This document shows, piece after piece, positions 383 through 8,389 of a stretch of DNA of 8,389 nt. The notes under the pieces are model-generated. The model was not told the origin of the DNA. It searched no databases and saw only the letters and a list, made by a program, of their open reading frames with translations. Where the stretch lies: the UHGV virus genome UHGV-1378212. The stretch is one strand, 5' to 3'. Numbering within the stretch: position 1 is the first letter of the stretch; the number at the start of each line of letters is the position of its first letter. A program made the position numbers and the translations under genes. Source of the stretch: a virus.

Positions 383-565
383 ATGGCAAAGCGCACGACT
401 TATAACGTGACGGAAGAAAGAAAAATGAAACTAGAACGACTGGCTATAAATGCCAGTGTAAAACTAGGAAAAACAATTACATGGACAGAGATTTTAGGTT
501 ATCTGATTGATAACTACTCTAAAGATGCAGCAGAAGATCTCATGTCTGCCAAACAAAAGGATTAA
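383..565 (+). CDS. Small DNA-binding protein, ribbon-helix-helix (CopG/Arc-like) candidate; possible repressor
   Basis: 60-aa ORF MAKRTTYNVTEERKMKLERLAINASVKLGKTITWTEILGYLIDNY...; N-terminal basic beta-strand (KRTTYNV) followed by two predicted helices with G-x-T at helix-2 start fits RHH pattern; no clear SD (possible leaderless or weak RBS); first gene of a terminated plus-strand operon. Confidence 0.45.
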   Translation: MAKRTTYNVTEERKMKLERLAINASVKLGKTITWTEILGYLIDNYSKDAAEDLMSAKQKD

Positions 566-610
566 GTACCACGAATGGTACAAACGTGCAGTATTACCAA
601 CACTGCACGT
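566..610 (+). promoter_or_regulatory. Two adjacent perfect stem-loops immediately after the RHH gene stop
   Basis: Hairpin 1: GTACCA-cgaa-TGGTAC at 566-581; hairpin 2: ACGTGCAGT-attaccaac-ACTGCACGT at 584-610, followed by T-rich tctagtttgt. Confidence 0.5.
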
Positions 611-680
611 TCTAGTTTGTGCAAAACTTAAACAAAAAGTAAGTCATCGAGATAAACAAAACGAGTCAAAGTATATACTG

Positions 681-821
681 ATGAATACGCCAAAAAAAAG
701 TGAACAAAAACAGAATGATAAGCAACAAGGCTTTGCCCAAGATGGTTTGGACACATCTAAAGCAAAAAGGCTTTTAGAAAAAGCTCAACAATCCACTACT
801 AAACCAACACAAGGAAAGTAA
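681..821 (+). CDS. Hypothetical small hydrophilic protein (46 aa), Lys/Gln-rich; C-terminal motif shared with the next ORF
   Basis: ATG at 681 is the first plausible start after the RHH stop within the 507-821 ORF; stop TAA 819-821 sits 1 nt before the next ATG (823); C-terminal GLDTSKAKRLLEKAQQS resembles GLNTSKASSLLAKIQSQS of the next ORF; no SD seen. Confidence 0.35.
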   Translation: MNTPKKSEQKQNDKQQGFAQDGLDTSKAKRLLEKAQQSTTKPTQGK

Positions 822-822
822 T

Positions 823-1098
823 ATGTTATCTTTTCAGGTTTTCCTTTTTAAAAAAGCATTAGAGGAAGAATTAGATATAATCAAATGGCATCCAACAAAT
901 GAACAATTGGAGGAGATGTTCAATGAGATAAAAAAACTCAGTGGCAATGAAAGCATCACTGAAGTTGAAAATATCGTTCATCGAATTTACAAAAAACCGA
1001 TTACAAGAATGATTTGTAATGGATTGAATACATCGAAAGCAAGTTCGCTATTGGCAAAAATTCAATCCCAGTCAAATAACACTCAACAAAAAAGATAG
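823..1098 (+). CDS. Hypothetical protein (91 aa)
   Basis: ORF MLSFQVFLFKKALEEELDIIKWHPTNEQLEEMFNEIKK...; SD-like AGGAAAG 6 nt upstream of ATG; stop TAG 1096-1098 overlaps the next start (GTG 1098); C-terminal motif paralogous to previous ORF. Confidence 0.55.
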   Translation: MLSFQVFLFKKALEEELDIIKWHPTNEQLEEMFNEIKKLSGNESITEVENIVHRIYKKPITRMICNGLNTSKASSLLAKIQSQSNNTQQKR

Positions 1099-1802
1099 TG
1101 AAATCAGATATGGATGTTCACGGTATCATTGATAATCAAAAAAAAGAAATTGAGCGTTTATATGAAAAATATACTGAGTCATTAGAGTGTTACCTATCTG
1201 GTAAATGTGATTTTGATACCGTGAATTCATGTGGAGACAGTTTTTTCGGCTATTTAGAACACTGCGCTGCACATAACAGAACAGTAGATGAATTAAATAA
1301 TACTCAATGGAATCAATGGCTTGCAGAAACATGCATTGATGTTCTTCACCTTATCTTAGCTCATTACAAAAAATATAGAGAGGTAATGAATGATAATAGT
1401 ATTAAACCAAGCTCCACTGCTTTTGCTTCAATGCAAAGGATAGTAAAAGCCCATGACAAACGTTCTGCAAAAGAAATAAGGAATCTTTTCGTTAATGAAG
1501 ATATGCCAGTATATGGATTTGACAATAAAGGAAAAGAAAAATTGACAAAAGCACACGAGAGAATAGCGGCATTTAGCTTTGGCATTTTACTTGTTATTCT
1601 TTTTATAATAATCGCAATATTTATACCTAATCCAACGAACTTTCAATACACTTTCTTTCGAATAATTCTTTCAGCAGCAGTTGCTGGGGTAGTCTCATTT
1701 ATACCCGGGTTTATAGAAGTCAAAATATCAAACTGGGTAAGAGCAGGTGGAGCATTAGCTGTATTTGTGATTGTCTATTACGTGGCTCCCGCAGCATTAT
1801 GA
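1098..1802 (+). CDS. Hypothetical membrane protein: Cys-rich soluble N-terminal domain (~165 aa) plus three predicted C-terminal transmembrane helices; candidate effector/exclusion protein
   Basis: 234-aa ORF (GTG 1098, alternative ATG 1110); hydrophobic stretches AAFSFGILLVILFIIIAIFIP, FFRIILSAAVAGVVSFIPGFI, AGGALAVFVIVYYVAPAAL at the C-terminus; five Cys in the N-terminal domain; followed by an intrinsic terminator. Confidence 0.6.
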   Translation: MKSDMDVHGIIDNQKKEIERLYEKYTESLECYLSGKCDFDTVNSCGDSFFGYLEHCAAHNRTVDELNNTQWNQWLAETCIDVLHLILAHYKKYREVMNDNSIKPSSTAFASMQRIVKAHDKRSAKEIRNLFVNEDMPVYGFDNKGKEKLTKAHERIAAFSFGILLVILFIIIAIFIPNPTNFQYTFFRIILSAAVAGVVSFIPGFIEVKISNWVRAGGALAVFVIVYYVAPAAL

Positions 1803-1832
1803 ATTGGTTCGCACAATGACGTTATGCTAAAG

Positions 1833-1870
1833 AGGCCGCTGCGGGATTCTATTTTCGCAGCGGCCTTTTC
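1833..1870 (+). terminator. Rho-independent terminator of the plus-strand cassette (possibly bidirectional, between convergent genes)
   Basis: Perfect 11-bp stem AGGCCGCTGCG (1833-1843) / CGCAGCGGCCT (1856-1866), 12-nt loop, followed by TTTT (1867-1870); lies between orf234 stop (1802) and the convergent minus-strand orf77 stop (1938). Confidence 0.75.
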
Positions 1871-1937
1871 AACATAACGAGTCGTACATTATGCGCACCA
1901 ATGGTAAGGATGGTGGGAACTGGCGTTACCGGTGCCG

Positions 1938-2171
1938 TCATTGGTCACAGACCGTAATCCACTGGCCCAGGACGTCTTTCAGGCAATGTTGGCATAAATC
2001 CAGTTTTAAGCGATTACTGTCACCAAAAATTGAACCGTATCCAGCTAAGTGATTAACAGACAGAAACTCATTGAACTCAATGTCATCTACCACCGTCTTC
2101 GCATGGCGACCACAGCGATCGCAGGTCTTCGCACATAACATTACAGTATCGCTGGATGTGAAAAATTGCAT
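1938..2171 (-). CDS. Hypothetical zinc-ribbon protein (77 aa) with two CxxC pairs
   Basis: ORF MQFFTSSDTVMLCAKTCDRCGRHAKTVVDDIEFNEFLSVNHLAGYGSIFGDSNRLKLDLCQHCLKDVLGQWITVCDQ; CDRC and CQHC separated by ~41 residues; strong SD GAGGAG 5 nt upstream of ATG (minus strand). Confidence 0.65.
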   Translation of the reverse strand: MQFFTSSDTVMLCAKTCDRCGRHAKTVVDDIEFNEFLSVNHLAGYGSIFGDSNRLKLDLCQHCLKDVLGQWITVCDQ

Positions 2172-2244
2172 TTTATCTCCTCGTAATGCTGCCGCGCCGA
2201 ATCAGCAATAACGCTAAAAAAACAGAATTGTTCGGCTTGGCCAA

Positions 2245-2285
2245 CCCCGGACACTAACAAAAGCAAGTTTTGTCACTGTCCGGGG
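2245..2285 (-). other. Stem-loop between orf102 and orf77 (possible terminator/attenuator or single-strand origin hairpin)
   Basis: CCCCGGACA (2245-2253) pairs with TGTCCGGGG (2277-2285); inner ACAAAA/TTTTGT pairing in the loop; a run of seven T on the phage strand lies ~30 nt downstream. Confidence 0.45.
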
Positions 2286-2288
2286 TTA

Positions 2289-2597
2289 TCATATAAACCA
2301 ATAGACCGTCCTTACGCCATTCTGGTTATCAATAACATAGCCGCATTGTTTCCTTAAAAATTCTTCTGCTAAATCAATGGCTTTTAAAGAAATCTCATAA
2401 GAAGGAAGTAAAGTGTATCCTTTCCCTTCACTGGCAGCTGCTTTGATCGCATCCAGAGTATTATCAATCAGTAACAGAGCAAGTGATGCTTCATTTACCT
2501 GAGCCGAAGAACTTCTGGCTGCAAGTGTCATTGTTTTTGCTTCTTCCGCTGTAATCGTTCGTTCTGCCAGAGCAGATAAAATCCCATAAGAATCCAT
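2289..2597 (-). CDS. Hypothetical protein (102 aa), phage-sense cargo gene
   Basis: ORF MDSYGILSALAERTITAEEAKTMTLAARSSSAQVNEASLALLLIDNTLDAIKAAASEGKGYTLLPSYEISLKAIDLAEEFLRKQCGYVIDNQNGVRTVYWFI; SD-like GGGGT 6 nt upstream of ATG; no family recognised. Confidence 0.55.
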   Translation of the reverse strand: MDSYGILSALAERTITAEEAKTMTLAARSSSAQVNEASLALLLIDNTLDAIKAAASEGKGYTLLPSYEISLKAIDLAEEFLRKQCGYVIDNQNGVRTVYWFI

Positions 2598-2617: not shown

Positions 2618-2677
2618 GTCCATTTGATGGATAGCGAGCAGGGCTCACGCACCTACCCGCTATCCATCAAAGTGGAC
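2618..2677 (-). terminator. Long imperfect hairpin at the 3' end of gene IV: candidate gene IV terminator and/or packaging-signal hairpin
   Basis: GTCCATTTGATGGATAGCG (2618-2636) pairs with CGCTATCCATCAAAGTGGAC (2658-2677) with one bulged base, ~21-nt loop; overlaps the gene IV stop (2667-2669); in Ff phages the packaging signal is a long hairpin directly after gene IV. Confidence 0.5.
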
Positions 2678-3932
2678 GAATGATATGTGCTGTAAGCAAA
2701 ATATACATAATACGCTGTTCATTGCTGTCTGCCTTGCTACTGAAAATCCAGCCTATAAGAGGAATTTTACTTATAACTGGAACTGAACGCTCAGCATTGC
2801 TAAACGATGAATCGATAAGCCCCCCCAATAACAACGTCTGACCATCCTTAATCTGGACTGTCGTCTGAATCTGGCGCTGATTAGTAATAATATCGGATGC
2901 CTGATCATCATTGCTGATTGAATCAGCGCGAGTGTCGATAGTCAGAACTAGTTGCCCGTTACCCATGACAACAGGCGTTACCTTGAGAGAAACGCCAACA
3001 TCATGACGCTCGATAGTCTGAAACGGATTATTTACCCCGGCAGATTCGCCCGTTACCTTTCCGGTGATAAACGGCACATTCTTACCTACGGAAATGTAAC
3101 CAGTCTGACCAGACTGAGTAAGAATACGCGGCGTTGAAATCACCTTAGAGCGTGAATTACTCTGGACAGCACGCAGAGACAGCGCCAACACGTTACCATC
3201 AAAAATACCAAAAGAACCGCCCGCCGTAGAAAGAGCGCTACCCAGTGCAGAAGTATTAAAGCCCCCCGCAACCTTATGACCGGATGCAGAACCTGCCGCA
3301 AACGATAAATCAACGCCATCAGACAAGCTGGTTTCAAACATCAGCGACTGAATGAGAACCTGATCGCGGGCAACATCCACAGAATTGATAAAATCGGACA
3401 GAACCGGCAGCAGCTCGTCAGGCGCAGAAACAATCAGCGAGTTATTGCCTGGATAATCCACGACATTACCACCACCATTAGAATCAAGATAAATTTTAAT
3501 CAGTTGCTGAACATCGGACGATCTAACTTTTGTCAGCTTAAAATTTCTGACCGTAAGCGCCACAGGTACTGGCTGGTAAGATGGCTCAGAAGGAAAAGTA
3601 TCATAAGACTGGTTATCAGAATCATCGGAATCCGAAACCATCTGTGAAGGTAATTTAGACGGCAAAGAGACTACCGCAGGATTGCCAGAAAGCATGACAA
3701 AACCGTTAGCATTCAGAACAGACTTAAAGAAATCATCAATATTTGTTGGATTAACATCAGCATTAAATACGGTTACGTTTCCTTTAATATCAGGATTAAC
3801 AATAACAGGCTTGCCAGTTTTTGAAGAATACCACTGAACAAATGAGCGAACAGATGAATTGTTTAAATTAACAGTTTCAGCAGAAACGCAGAATGAACAG
3901 GCAAATAAAAAAGCAACAATAACAGAGCGCAT
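2667..3932 (-). CDS. IV: Gene IV secretin (phage export channel, pIV)
   Basis: From internal ATG at 3930-3932: MRSVIVAFLFACSFCVSAETVNLNNSSVRSFVQWYSSKTGKPVIVNPDIKGNVTVF... resembles recalled M13 pIV N-terminus (signal peptide then VIEMNNSPLRDFVTWYSKQSGESVIVSPDVKGTVTVY); AGGAG upstream; the 452-aa track ORF is an upstream in-frame extension that overlaps gene I. Confidence 0.9.
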   Translation of the reverse strand: MRSVIVAFLFACSFCVSAETVNLNNSSVRSFVQWYSSKTGKPVIVNPDIKGNVTVFNADVNPTNIDDFFKSVLNANGFVMLSGNPAVVSLPSKLPSQMVSDSDDSDNQSYDTFPSEPSYQPVPVALTVRNFKLTKVRSSDVQQLIKIYLDSNGGGNVVDYPGNNSLIVSAPDELLPVLSDFINSVDVARDQVLIQSLMFETSLSDGVDLSFAAGSASGHKVAGGFNTSALGSALSTAGGSFGIFDGNVLALSLRAVQSNSRSKVISTPRILTQSGQTGYISVGKNVPFITGKVTGESAGVNNPFQTIERHDVGVSLKVTPVVMGNGQLVLTIDTRADSISNDDQASDIITNQRQIQTTVQIKDGQTLLLGGLIDSSFSNAERSVPVISKIPLIGWIFSSKADSNEQRIMYILLTAHIIRPL

Positions 3933-3939
3933 AATAATA

Positions 3940-4314
3940 TTACTCCTGACAGATAACAGTCTGTAAATAACGGCCTTTTCTAATAACAACACGACAGGCA
4001 TCTTTAATATCAACGGAATAACCATCTTTAATCAAATCAAAATACTGATATTTCGTACCTTTTGCATCAACAAACGTAACGGAAACGTCAAAGCCAAGTT
4101 GTGAAAAAGAATTAATAGAAAGTCGGGGTAAGTCACTGGACGAATCAGGCGTTACCGCCCTCGCCTGTTCAGCATAAGCAGATTTAATAGCGGAGATTTC
4201 ATCAACATTCTTTCCAGACTGGAGCCAGAAACCAAGCGCAAGCCCCAGCGCCAAAAAAGAAAGCATTAATATAAGACGGTTCGATTTGCGAAAATAAATT
4301 TTCGTGAGGCGCAT
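3940..4314 (-). CDS. XI: Gene XI (pXI), in-frame internal start within gene I
   Basis: Internal Met at residue 241 of pI (ATG at 4312-4314, minus strand) begins MRLTKIYFRKSNRLILMLSF..., matching the position and sequence of M13 pXI start (MKLTKIYLKKFSRV...) including the membrane-spanning segment. Confidence 0.6.
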   Translation of the reverse strand: MRLTKIYFRKSNRLILMLSFLALGLALGFWLQSGKNVDEISAIKSAYAEQARAVTPDSSSDLPRLSINSFSQLGFDVSVTFVDAKGTKYQYFDLIKDGYSVDIKDACRVVIRKGRYLQTVICQE

Positions 4315-5034
4315 ATAATAATTAAATCCTCTGTGAACAGAAAATTGACCGTGCGTGATAAATGGTGGCAAAAGCGAATAAGCACCATGCGGATAGTTAT
4401 CAGTAAAAACCTGTTTTGTATTGTAGGCGGAATATAATGATTTTCCGGTGTATATCCATTTATCAACAGTAATTGAATTAACGTTATCACCATATTTGAC
4501 AATGCCAAAGTGTACCTTTGGTAAAGAAAATCGCGCCCCTGAAACCAAATTCATAATGGAGCCAACAAAAGGAATGTTTAATTTATCTGAACGGCGACAA
4601 TAAACAACATGCTCAGCAAGCGCCAGACGAGCTTGCTTATCCATTATCGAAATATCCTGAATCAAAAATATAATATCCCAGCCTAATTTTCTGGCATGTA
4701 AAAACCAGTCAATAACAGGTTGTCTGTCTTTATCACCCCATGAGCGGGAATTAAACCAAGTACCACATTCATCAAGTACAAGGAGGCCATTACGGGATTC
4801 ATCGTAAGATGTATTCCCAATACCAATAGCAAGTAAATCATTTAATGAAGGCTTGTCAGGAATGCGAATAACGCGCGTTTTTTTCGCATAACGCCCAACC
4901 ATAGGCATATTATGCAATTTAAGATCAAGATTAGTGGCAACAGGACAACCCTTAGCAAGTCTTTCCTGTATTCTGGAAACACTAACAAGTGTCTTGCCTG
5001 AGCCTAATTTGCCTGTTACTACATGAACCGCCAT
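3940..5034 (-). CDS. I: Gene I assembly ATPase (pI, Zot-like), Walker A GKLGSGKT
   Basis: 364-aa ORF MAVHVVTGKLGSGKTLVSVSRIQERLAKGCPVATNLDLKL... very similar to recalled M13 pI (MAVYFVTGKLGSGKTLVSVGKIQDKIVAGCKIATNLDLRL...); start abuts gene VI stop (TAAATG). Confidence 0.95.
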   Translation of the reverse strand: MAVHVVTGKLGSGKTLVSVSRIQERLAKGCPVATNLDLKLHNMPMVGRYAKKTRVIRIPDKPSLNDLLAIGIGNTSYDESRNGLLVLDECGTWFNSRSWGDKDRQPVIDWFLHARKLGWDIIFLIQDISIMDKQARLALAEHVVYCRRSDKLNIPFVGSIMNLVSGARFSLPKVHFGIVKYGDNVNSITVDKWIYTGKSLYSAYNTKQVFTDNYPHGAYSLLPPFITHGQFSVHRGFNYYMRLTKIYFRKSNRLILMLSFLALGLALGFWLQSGKNVDEISAIKSAYAEQARAVTPDSSSDLPRLSINSFSQLGFDVSVTFVDAKGTKYQYFDLIKDGYSVDIKDACRVVIRKGRYLQTVICQE

Positions 5035-5376
5035 TTAAATCACCCTGTTTGCATAATCAAGAAATTTTTGTTTTAAATCGAAAACAAAAACACTGATACG
5101 AGTAACCATAATAACGTTAACACACGCCTGAAAATGGTCAGGCAATACAGACGCCATTAAATGGGAGAAATCAGCAGGTAAACCGTTATACATGACCTCA
5201 GCAAGGTACTGCATTAAAAGCGTAACAGTTGTTGTAATTAATGCGACCAATGCAAAGGCGATTAATCCTGTTCTGGTAGCAAGTCGAGCTAAAAAACTCG
5301 CCACATAGCCAATAAACAAAGGAACAAGACCAATAAGAAAACGCAACAATGCAGGAATACCTAATAATAAAGGCAT
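5035..5376 (-). CDS. VI: Gene VI minor coat protein (pVI)
   Basis: [32 protein letters not shown]...FVFDLKQKFLDYANRVI resembles recalled M13 pVI (MPVLLGIPLLLRFLGF...FIFDVKQKIVSYLDWDK); ATG at 5374-5376 overlaps gene III stop by 1 nt (track ORF starts one codon earlier at GTG 5379). Confidence 0.9.
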   Translation of the reverse strand: MPLLLGIPALLRFLIGLVPLFIGYVASFLARLATRTGLIAFALVALITTTVTLLMQYLAEVMYNGLPADFSHLMASVLPDHFQACVNVIMVTRISVFVFDLKQKFLDYANRVI

Positions 5377-6626
5377 CACTCACCCCCTTTGCGAAGCAAT
5401 GAAGTTAAAGAAGTAAAGACATACCAGAACGTAAGGCAATAAAAAACCCATGAAAGAACATCTTTAATAGTCAGTAATTTATCGCAACCAATATCAATCT
5501 GATAAACCTCTCCGGGAAAAATAATAAAATCAGAGCAGCCGTTACCATTGGGTAAATTAGGCAGCATAGCACCTTTATTTAAAAATGCTTCCCATAAAGC
5601 ACCGTGAGAATCCTTTTCAATTCCCAATTCAGAATCAGCCAAAGTAGAAGCGCCATCTAATTCAGAGTCGCCCTTTCCATAACGAGAATCACCACCTGAA
5701 GGGTCAGCAAAACGGCCAGCCCCCCGCGTAAGATTGTTAATGGAATCGTCAAGACGATTTATATTATTCCTAGTTTGTTCATCGGCATTTTTTTTATCAT
5801 CTGATGAAGTGTCTTTCTCCGTTAATTTATCATGAATATCGCTGGCTATTTTGGGTGAAGCACCTTCGATAGCAGACTGAATATCACCTTTAGAAAGACT
5901 GGAACCACTAAAGCCACCGCCAGAACTACCGCCACCGGACTCACCACCGCCAGAACTACCGCCACCGGACTCACCACCGCCAGACTCACCACCGCCAGAC
6001 TCACCACCACCATTTTGGGGGGTTGAGGGTTTATCAGAGGGGTCAGCTACAGTACCTGTAGGCTTCCATGTTGCAGCGCAAACAGTACCATCACCCTGAC
6101 AAACAATGACACCAGTAGCCTCATATTCACAGCCGTTATAGTAGATATAACGACCACCATCATATGAATCAACATTATTAAATACACCTTCTTCTGGCGG
6201 CTTCGCTTCACAAATTTCTTCTGGTGTCGGGTCAGTAGGTTTTTCATCAGGAACAGAACGCTGAATATCACCAACAATATAAGCCGTTAAAGACCAATAT
6301 TTATCCTTCTGCCCTGGTGAATCGCTGTAAGTACAATCACCAGTAAAAACAAGACGGAATTCAGAATCAGGCCAGATACCCTCATAAGTTGGTTTAACCT
6401 GAGTAAATACACTCTGAGCACTGGATTTAGCACCCTGACAAGCGGAGGCCTGCATAGCAGCATCAATATAGTAAACCGTTGACTTAGAGCCATCCTGATT
6501 GGTTATTTGCTTACTTTCAGCGTAGGCAGAGCTTTGATAAGTGGATTTAGTAATGCTTTCCCATGACTCAGCATGTGAAAAAGGAGAAATGAGGACAGCG
6601 GAAAGAATTAATATTTTCCTTTTCAT
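5376..6626 (-). CDS. III: Gene III adsorption / minor coat protein (pIII) with signal peptide, Gly-rich linkers and C-terminal anchor
   Basis: From internal ATG at 6624-6626: [19 protein letters not shown]|ESWES... signal peptide; Cys-rich N-domains; linker [33 protein letters not shown]; hydrophobic C-terminal anchor; position after gene VIII terminator; the 464-aa track ORF is an upstream extension overlapping gene VIII. Confidence 0.9.
5914..6011. repeat. Tandem direct repeats (2 x 30 nt, then 2 x 15 nt) encoding the Gly/Ser/Glu linker of pIII
   Basis: ccaccgccagaactaccgccaccggactca at 5914-5943 and 5944-5973; ccaccgccagactca at 5974-5988 and 5989-6003. Confidence 0.9.
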
Positions 6627-6635
6627 AGTAACCCG

Positions 6636-6663
6636 CTTTAATAAAGGGGCAACGAGTGCCCCT
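6636..6663 (-). terminator. Rho-independent terminator after gene VIII (before gene III)
   Basis: On minus strand GGGGCA-ctcgt-TGCCCC stem-loop (plus coords 6646-6662) followed by TTTATT; same location as the central terminator of Ff phages. Confidence 0.8.
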
Positions 6664-6672
6664 GAGTGAAAT

Positions 6673-6915
6673 TCAAACCGCTTTTGAAGAGAATTTTTTG
6701 AAAATACGAATGGCAAGCCCAGCGCCAACCACAGCCACAACAACAGGCCATACTTTACCAATGAGATCATTTGCCTGAGTCAACAAAGCATCCATTGCCT
6801 GACCTGCATAATCAGTACCACCTGTAGCGCCTTCAGCCGCAAAAGAACTTGCAGAAACAAAAAGCGCAGTTGAAGCCAGAGCAACTTTATATTTAACAGT
6901 AGACAGAATTTTCAT
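6673..6915 (-). CDS. VIII: Gene VIII major coat protein (pVIII) precursor
   Basis: [26 protein letters not shown]|[54 protein letters not shown]: signal peptide, acidic N-terminus, hydrophobic core, basic C-terminus KKFSSKAV typical of Ff/IKe coat proteins; SD GGAG 8 nt upstream. Confidence 0.95.
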
Positions 6916-7118: not shown

Positions 7119-7436
7119 TTAACCTTTGATCTCTGCGATGCCACCATCGGAAGAAACATTATAAGTTACACCTTCCCTACCCTCCATTGACCACGCACGG
7201 ACATAGACAGGAATTTGAACTAATTTCCCAATGAAAGCATTCGCCTGGTTCATTAGACCTGCGTTAACGAGAGTCTGAGAAACTCGAATAATAATTTGAT
7301 CCTGCTTTGTACCACCAAAACCATCAGGTATTTCAAGGCCAATACCAATTTCATTATAATAGCCCTGACCATTAACTTTATTACGTTGGCGGGCTCCCAA
7401 CATTTTACCCTTAACGAAAAGACCATAATTAGACAT
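7119..7436 (-). CDS. V: Gene V ssDNA-binding protein candidate (105 aa), divergent from Ff pV
   Basis: ORF in the canonical position between gene II/X and gene VII; weak resemblance to M13 pV (G-x-x-Y-x-NE region); assignment rests mainly on synteny. Confidence 0.6.
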   Translation of the reverse strand: MSNYGLFVKGKMLGARQRNKVNGQGYYNEIGIGLEIPDGFGGTKQDQIIIRVSQTLVNAGLMNQANAFIGKLVQIPVYVRAWSMEGREGVTYNVSSDGGIAEIKG

Positions 7437-7762: not shown

Positions 7763-8342
7763 TTCTATTCTCCCTACATATTCAGAGAATAATTGACGTG
7801 GTGTTTTCATATTCCAGTTAGCGCCAAGCGTTAAATTTAAATCAATAAGCTCAGTTGTTCTTAATGTTAATTCAATACGTAATTTATCTTTCGTCCAGTC
7901 CAGTAACCCGGCTCGTACAAAATCTTCGGCTATCTGGTGCCCTTTTTTACCCGAAACGTGTTCATCATATTTTGAATAAAATTTCAGACTCCATCGACGG
8001 GAGTTTTTACCTAAATAAACTGTACCGCCTTTCCCACATGCGCGACCATGGCGTGTTTTAGCTTTAAATTCGGCGGCATAAAGCCATGATCTGACATTTT
8101 CTAGCGTAGATAATGAATACATGTAATTAATGTCAACACGTGAAATTTTATACTGACCTGCTATAACAGCTTTATAAGACGCTAAATCATGAGGAATATT
8201 CAATAAGGATAAAATCCTGGCATAGACCGTCAACATGAGCCCTTGTATATCATCCGACCCAACAACAGAATGCCCCTGCAAAAACTTGGACGGATTACCA
8301 TCAATGTACAAATGTGTCGCTTTACCTTCGCCATTAGATCCT
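7448..8342 (-). CDS. II: Gene II replication initiation protein, C-terminal segment (continues at 56-213 via circular junction)
   Basis: 287-aa track ORF plus upstream in-frame codons to 8342; C-terminus ...NNVVPLIRTLEAKPVEIPLWIYEKGFIFDYNRIS matches recalled M13 pII C-terminus (NNVVPLVRFINVDFSSQRPDWY); the track start at 8311 is a TTG, not the real start. Confidence 0.9.
8288..8342. repeat. Terminal direct repeat, copy 2 (identical to 1-55)
   Basis: Exact 55-nt match to window start. Confidence 0.9.
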
Positions 8343-8389
8343 GTCTCTTATACACATCTCCGAGCCCACGAGACGTAGAGGAATCTCGT
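8341..8389. other. Sequencing-library adapter read-through (Tn5 mosaic end plus Nextera adapter with an index-like 8-mer), not biological sequence
   Basis: CTGTCTCTTATACACATCT (Tn5 mosaic end) followed by CCGAGCCCACGAGAC, 8 nt GTAGAGGA, then ATCTCGT (start of ATCTCGTATGCCGTCTTCTGCTTG); begins exactly where the terminal repeat stops matching. Confidence 0.9.

Follow-up and report, generated by a model that had tools for sequence, protein, structure and literature searches.

Filamentous phages of the UPΦ type join IKe/I2-2-like morphogenesis genes to YpfΦ-like gII and gV (>85% identity), and they have GGGES repeats in g3p, a dif site and three reverse-oriented open reading frames (ORFs) past dif, according to their description (PMC7307601; Shapiro and Putonti, 2020, Virus Evol 6:veaa030). 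The same paper places two ORFs of unknown function, h1 and h2, where IKe has intergenic DNA, reports both genes in all 229 UPΦ prophages/genomes, suggests that they "likely interact", and names Escherichia coli ECONIH2 as a UPΦ host. In YpfΦ, YPO2280a and YPO2281, together with their CUS-1 homologs, follow the secretin gene, lie by attR/dif and have "no predictable function" (PMC4266046; Derbise and Carniel, 2014). Here, the virus genome UHGV-1378212 (8,389 nt, the whole stretch being called the window below) was analysed around two ORFs at positions 1938–2597, which code for proteins of 102 and 77 aa and correspond to h1 and h2. The names were assumed from gene order, the 102-aa ORF being taken as h1 and the 77-aa ORF as h2. 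Both genes are already known as UPΦ genes, and a literature search found no later characterisation of either.

UHGV-1378212 is a UPΦ-type filamentous phage (inovirus), as all the defining traits given by Shapiro and Putonti (2020) were matched. IKe-like assembly genes were found together with YpfΦ-like gII and gV, and a dif-type attP, two ORFs in the IKe-intergenic region and reverse ORFs beyond dif were all present. Compared with UPΦ901/UPΦ, it is apparently the same phage type with the same two genes, in the place that is intergenic in the phages IKe, I2-2 and M13, with dif adjoining and three reverse ORFs. The features of the region are as follows.

2289–2597, minus strand (phage sense): h1-type accessory gene, an ORF of 102 aa with an ATG start, in slot A (packaging hairpin to I2).
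1938–2171, minus strand (phage sense): h2-type accessory gene, an ORF of 77 aa with an ATG start, in slot B (I2 to attP).
2618–2675, minus strand: I3, an inverted repeat (2623–2671) forming a hairpin over the gIV stop codon, homologous to the stem-loop known in IKe as the "morphogenetic (packaging) signal".
2185–2288, minus strand: I2, a cis element with a 19–20-bp hairpin at 2243–2287 and a downstream box, GCTGATTCGGCGCGGCAGC.
1803–1902, minus strand: attP (I1), two inverted dif-like sites that fold into a forked hairpin when the viral DNA is single-stranded.

We consider it likely that this order, running from the gIV/IKe-type packaging hairpin through h1, I2 and h2 to the XerCD attP hairpin, consists of two cargo slots and three conserved cis elements, and that the genes in the slots were acquired independently. 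The spacer between h1 and h2 is 117 nt long and is filled by I2. In inoviruses without h1 and h2 (L013, L014, L102 and L103), I2 was 83–88% identical to that of the window, and across YpfΦ-type and other dif-integrating inoviruses this conservation exceeded that of gII/gV (80%). Because I2 is conserved in phages that have neither gene, h1 and h2 appear to occupy two separate slots. The single-stranded DNA (ssDNA) fold of I2 had a z of −4.9, and in an alignment of 11 sequences 95% of the cells were paired, with compensatory changes in 5 of the 19 pairs. No counterpart of I2 was detectable in IKe. The DNA common to the window and the YpfΦ-type L014 was limited to gII/gV, attP, I2 and one ~70-nt segment, and the identity was 85% for gII, 93% for gV and just 27% for gIV. 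Outside gII/gV, I2 is one of only four short segments common to the window and L014. Since I2 and attP are among the few DNA segments common to the window and the YpfΦ-type phage, I2 travels with the replication/integration module and not with the IKe-like assembly module. These features point to I2 as a candidate origin or RNA/ssDNA processing element. To our knowledge, I2 has no published description.

Position and the sequence of its apex both relate the gIV-stop hairpin to the morphogenetic signal of IKe. Over the 22 nt of the apex the identity to IKe is 91%, the predicted ssDNA hairpin has an energy of −21.4 kcal/mol, and the IKe record has a stem-loop annotated at the equivalent position (6141–6196). 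While the IKe intergenic region contains the packaging signal and the minus- and plus-strand origins, the remainder of the region is replaced in UPΦ by h1, I2, h2, attP and the reverse cassette. At the other end, attP contains the dif-like sites GGTTCGCACAA..TTATGCTAAAG at 1806–1832 and, on the minus strand, GGTGCGCATAA..TTATGTTGAAA at 1899–1867, and its ssDNA fold reached −31.2 kcal/mol (z = −7.7). This attP, which forms the right-hand border of slot B, would by analogy with CTXΦ be a XerCD substrate. It was matched at ~92–96% at E. coli dif loci beside hipBA. Moreover, ~900 E. coli records, many large plasmids among them, matched a ~75-nt dif-like/hairpin segment (window 1802–1877) at ~92%, and on several chromosomes (e.g., L012) such a segment lay directly after a SIR2-family gene beside hipBA/dif. 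These dif-like segments may be footprints of earlier Xer-dependent insertions.

The contents of the two slots in other phages were also compared. Slot A held an unrelated 82-aa basic ORF in L014, L102 and L103; in Providencia phages its content was an unrelated ORF of 128 aa, and in L013 and L017 it was empty. Slot B held h2 homologs in several lineages, a 65-aa ORF in L014 and a 57-aa ORF in L013, and it was empty in L102, L103 and L006. The Providencia 128-aa ORF was tried as a remote h1 homolog and rejected (hhalign probability 2.4%). The 82-aa ORF is very basic (MSVK..RDRLPGGRLKSYRRVGSH…) and was located at 6633–6881 in L014 and at 2106–2354 in L102. Because it occurs in YpfΦ-type phages as well as in an 84–86%-identical UPΦ relative, it would be a second cargo gene that has moved from one lineage of inoviruses to another. 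YPO2280a and YPO2281 share with h1 and h2 the position and the flanking I2 and attP, but their sequences are unrelated: L014 and the first L001 prophage have the 82-aa basic and 65-aa ORFs in these slots, and tblastn with h1 or h2 found nothing in L014. Judged from position, the two L014 ORFs may be YPO2280a and YPO2281 themselves. An identity of UHGV-1378212 with CUS-1/YpfΦ, with its pair as YPO2280a/YPO2281, was considered and dropped, because L014 shares little DNA with the window, the ORFs in the slots are unrelated and the UPΦ traits fit.

Given that the sequence-only reading had likened the two ORFs to a toxin–antitoxin (TA) or anti-defence pair, we were particularly interested in whether they behave as a unit. 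A functional two-gene module, either TA or otherwise interacting, would fit two neighbouring genes of one strand that are both present in all phage copies of at least 99% identity, as they are in all 229 UPΦ prophages of PMC7307601. However, h1 and h2 were found together only in these near-identical copies (9 distinct contigs), and every diverged homolog of either gene occurred without the other. Five loci were h1-only, including L006, L007 and the complete circular UPΦ-like L027, and more than 76 were h2-only, including the YpfΦ-type L017, so that even close relatives (L027 for h1, L017 for h2) carry one gene only. The co-occurrence on which the suggested pairing hung was thus absent in diverged genomes. 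A tight bicistronic operon was not seen either, because the 117-nt spacer contains a conserved hairpin, which also exists in phages without either gene. In Pfam, NCBIfam and PADLOC, neither protein matched a toxin, antitoxin or defence model, YgiT/MqsA-type included, and only sub-threshold matches were obtained (e.g., zf-FPG_IleRS, 0.0042; S-layer, 0.02). The YgiT-type zinc finger that had been put forward as a check gave no YgiT/MqsA match at E ≤ 1 in Pfam or NCBIfam. h2 resembles MqsA/YgiT in being small, in having a CxxC…CxxC pattern and in lying on a mobile element, but it differs in having no family match at that level, no helix-turn-helix in its predicted model and no conserved toxin partner, and the model is not a two-knuckle ribbon.

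On the other hand, in a few members of the h2 family the C-terminus carries an added domain of antitoxin type (PF09722, DUF4926 or a weak CcdA match), which would favour a TA function. None of these fusions had a matching toxin gene beside it. The PF09722 (Xre_MbcA_ParS_C) fusions are rare and lie in other proteins (P0083, P0101 and P0110), and no toxin gene of the RES/ParT type was present beside them. The pair was therefore not borne out, as co-occurrence did not extend beyond the lineage, I2 lies between the genes and no family match was obtained. The comparison suggests that h1 and h2 are two independent passengers and that a TA-like pair is unlikely; we regard a functional two-gene module of any kind as improbable. 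PMC7307601 proposes an interaction of the two, whereas here no co-occurrence was seen outside the lineage, and some UPΦ-like phages were found to carry an h1 of 60% identity while lacking h2.

Several lines of evidence indicate that both ORFs are real genes. Shine-Dalgarno sequences were seen for both, with GGGG at 2604–2607 for h1 and GAGGAG at 2178–2183 for h2, each 6 nt from the ATG. Both proteins matched PHROG families over their full length, h1 as phrog_4115 (2.9e-68, residues 1–102) and h2 as phrog_5435 (4.5e-46, residues 1–77), and both families are labelled "unknown function". The start residues were kept among the homologs of both proteins. Against diverged homologs, dN/dS was 0.13–0.15 for h1 and 0.05–0.06 for h2, with dS near saturation, and both genes appear to be under purifying selection. 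The fact that this region is intergenic in IKe, and that the window contains many spurious ORFs of 30–80 aa, could speak for chance open frames in non-coding intergenic DNA. However, the frame is kept by diverged homologs at a dN/dS of 0.05–0.15, profile searches gave E-values down to 1e-39 in hundreds of taxa, the AF2 model of h2 is confident and a Shine-Dalgarno site precedes both ORFs. Chance frames can be regarded as already ruled out by this conservation pattern, and the probability that we leave to them is negligible.

In these respects the sequence-only reading held up well: its ORFs of 102 and 77 aa at 1938–2597 were recovered on the minus strand with the good Shine-Dalgarno sequences it had reported, they lie between the gIV-stop hairpin and the attP/antisense cassette as it had placed them, and its description as phage-sense cargo agrees with accessory insertions where IKe has non-coding intergenic DNA. 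Its statement that the region is GC-richer was overstated. The region has 42.6% GC, which is clearly above the plus-strand cassette (34.2%) but not above the whole window (40.2%) or the phage core (40.8%) to that degree, and h1 alone has 39.5%. A consensus scan of 1700–2800 for sigma-70 promoters and intrinsic terminators gave no sites. Identical copies of each protein were encoded on at least 1000 contigs, tblastn of both against 50,697 GenBank phage records gave no match, and sequence-profile searches of the PDB gave nothing significant.

The 77-aa h2 protein has two cysteine pairs, C17xxC20 and C60xxC63, in addition to the non-conserved C13 and C75. A single-sequence search found just 14 relatives, and a profile built from six h2 relatives retrieved 1655 clusters at E ≤ 1e-3. 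None of these clusters had a Pfam domain over this region, and a Pfam scan of all 79 aligned family members showed no common family. The family signature consists of C17xxC20, E32, E35, GYGSxFGDG, D58-L-C-Q-H-C63 and W71; among the 79 sequences C20, C60 and C63 were invariant and C17 was present in at least 90%. In the AF2 model of h2 (pLDDT 88), the first CxxC lies on a beta-hairpin zinc knuckle and the second at the N-terminus of a helix. h2 is therefore modelled as treble-clef-like and not as a classical zinc ribbon, so that the two CxxC motifs noted earlier were retained while the ribbon fold was replaced by a knuckle plus helix. It is predicted to be a Cys4 zinc-finger-like protein that binds zinc. 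h2 belongs to a family of Cys4 domains of ~60 residues that is large and has no name. While PMC7307601 reports no homologs outside UPΦ-related prophages, the family found here comprises at least 1655 clusters and reaches well beyond UPΦ.

In several inovirus lineages, the h2 homolog was the last gene after the secretin and before attP. The order secretin–I2–h2–dif was observed in L017 (82% identity), L036/37 (64%), L039 (57%) and the Klebsiella loci L105–107 (56%). In L038, I2 was visible and the contig then ends, and in Providencia L109–112 (h2 57–59%) dif was present and no I2 was detectable. Homologs on Enterobacteriaceae plasmids kept I2/attP-like remnants, with a secretin remnant also in L009, and these copies look like decayed inovirus insertions. 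The family was also present in tailed phages, plasmids and defence islands, most members being on tailed-phage contigs without an I2/dif context. Among the 73 IMG/VR loci with an h2 homolog, 51 were on contigs of 15–461 kb, adjoining GIY-YIG homing endonuclease, methyltransferase and RNR genes. One homolog lay beside a SIR2 gene (844-aa SIR2 protein) on a 7-kb Proteus plasmid, one was on a Ralstonia plasmid, and a further one was part of a defence island that includes Fic, TacA and Hachiman genes. A search for a conserved neighbour at 57 diverged h2 loci found none, the largest neighbour clusters covering 5 loci.

One relative, P0008 (L002–L005, 71% identical to h2), has Ser in place of the first zinc-ligand Cys, C17. 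The gene nevertheless remains intact on no fewer than 19 contigs. Its plasmid surroundings resemble a leading region, with genes for YubE and an N6_N4 methyltransferase, and the ORF that comes next, charged and 77 aa long, is unrelated.

The distribution of h1 was much narrower. When 1.84 billion representative proteins were searched exhaustively with HMMER, just 7 matched, 6 of them of this lineage and 1 weak, and tblastn found two plasmid records only, both with this phage. The h1 profile matched 10 IMG/VR contigs, all inovirus-sized, and among 185,579 species-representative genomes it gave one match, on a "Nanosynbacter" metagenome-assembled genome (MAG) contig (L101). This contig (JARKOR010000214.1, in a MAG labelled Candidatus Nanosynbacter) carries a 99%-identical UPΦ copy and is almost certainly a mis-binned enterobacterial contig. 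A homolog with 60% identity was found in Salmonella, in phages of the UPΦ-like kind with core proteins 89–95% identical. These searches suggest that h1 is a near-orphan confined to UPΦ-like phages. The AF2 model (pLDDT 70) has three N-terminal helices followed by an alpha/beta C-terminal part; the helical N-terminus diverges fast and the C-terminal part is conserved. From its sequence, h1 is predicted to be cytoplasmic.

Rearranged forms of h1 were also observed. A 3.55-kb Citrobacter youngae contig (L104) is a deletion derivative in which window position 76 is joined to 2495, with gII codons 1–43 fused in frame to h1 codons 35–102, the junction being a microhomology of 8 nt (ATGAAGCA). It has lost every structural gene and retains the plus-strand cassette, I2, h2 and attP. 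h1 also clusters with many similar fusion proteins that are named "G2P, partial" in assemblies of E. coli, Salmonella and Klebsiella, and L104-type fusions may represent a widespread defective mini-phage dependent on a helper. In the contig IMGVR_UViG_2541047720_000001 (L026/L032), h1 is cut to residues 38–102 and abuts a shortened gIV match, and gII is partial; this contig appears to be another rearranged UPΦ variant.

The possible functions of the two proteins were then weighed. Both are acidic (pI 4.7 for h1 and 5.4 for h2), and no transmembrane segment or signal peptide was found in either, the maximal Kyte-Doolittle 19-residue windows being 0.66 and 1.21. We tentatively propose that the two work independently of each other, each being a small, acidic binding protein of the cytoplasm that is expressed from the prophage or the replicative form, and that neither is part of a TA couple or a secreted toxin. 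As a module stabilised by zinc, h2 would bind a component of the host or of a competing element and modulate it, with anti-defence, superinfection or host modulation as the possible outcome.

A secreted virulence factor was considered by analogy with ctxAB of CTXΦ. As in CTXΦ, the accessory genes follow the assembly/secretion module and lie by the XerCD site of an inovirus that integrates at dif and whose attP(+) forms a forked hairpin; the position is that of ctxAB and other inovirus conversion genes (PMC4266046, PMC7307601), and the hosts are mostly uropathogenic or extra-intestinal E. coli. However, h1 and h2 have no sequence relation to ctxAB and no signal peptides or toxin domains, their hydrophobicity maxima indicate no hydrophobic segment, no toxin family was matched, and the h2 family is spread over environmental phages. 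A secreted factor would thus be very improbable.

The main rival to the stand-alone binding protein, as far as h2 is concerned, is a life-cycle role at I2/attP, in which h2 would be a nucleic-acid-binding zinc finger tuning XerCD integration/excision at attP or replication at I2. The recurrent linkage of h2 with I2/attP is what would be expected from such a factor. However, h2 is acidic, and it is dispensable, since L014, L102, L103 and L027 are without it despite an I2/attP 83–99% identical to that of the window. Moreover, the bulk of the family, being on tailed-phage contigs, has neither I2 nor dif nearby. We regard a life-cycle role as rather unlikely. A broader reading, to which we give somewhat less weight than to the stand-alone binding protein, is that the h2 family represents a widespread, unnamed ~60-residue zinc-finger class of mobile elements, either a new anti-defence/host take-over inhibitor or a XerCD/dif tuning factor. 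In that case I2–h2–attP might be a portable end-module exchanged among inoviruses, and h1 might be a lineage-specific add-on with a target of its own.

The genome that carries these genes was laid out as follows.

Start 213, wrapping the junction and continuing from 8287 down to 7448, minus strand: gII.
7119–7436, minus strand: gV.
6673–6915, minus strand: gVIII.
5376–6770, minus strand: gIII.
5035–5379, minus strand: gVI.
3940–5034, minus strand: gI/Zot.
2667–4025, minus strand: gIV, the secretin.
383–1802, plus strand: reverse-oriented cassette.

The genome is circular with 8287 nt; bases 1–55 are repeated at 8288–8342 (assembly overlap), and an untrimmed Illumina Nextera adapter (CTGTCTCTTATACACATCTCCGAGCCCACGAGAC plus index) occupies 8343–8389. 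Its g3p has GGGES repeats. The whole window was matched at 100% identity by prophages of E. coli ECONIH2, F11, MS 200-1 and others, and at least 80% of the window was present in 47 of the 5426 complete E. coli genomes. The E. coli copies form tandem arrays at the dif locus adjoining hipBA, and the host strains are for the most part uropathogenic or extra-intestinal. The other phage in the same arrays is a YpfΦ-type inovirus (L014, and also the first prophage in L001). The phage itself was absent from the GenBank phage collection, in which the closest match was IKe gIV with 79% DNA identity.

Variation in the phage is concentrated in the plus-strand cassette (383–1802), which is hypervariable. 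In about half of the E. coli copies, just 86% of the window is covered and the cassette contains other genes, among them genes for a Doc-family toxin, an STM4504/CBY_0614 family protein and a PD-(D/E)XK nuclease, and tandem copies in one strain (F11) differ there. The 234-aa protein at 1098–1802 has a hydrophobic C-terminal region by eye and a weak PADLOC match to Csx27 (0.0057).

Relative to PMC7307601, three points are new: the very large h2 family, the independence of h1 and h2, and the conserved cis element between them, which YpfΦ-type phages have as well. These points usefully correct the earlier picture but do not amount to a new kind of system, and the result is modest. UPΦ-type prophages occupy dif in many uropathogenic/extra-intestinal E. 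coli and also in Salmonella and Klebsiella, and h1 and h2 lie in the slot where CTXΦ has cholera toxin, so that a role in host fitness is a reasonable question. The focus shifts from a TA pair to h2 alone, as a member of a large phage/plasmid family and a recurrent cargo at the end of inovirus genomes, and the I2 hairpin is worth attention as a candidate cis-acting replication or processing element.

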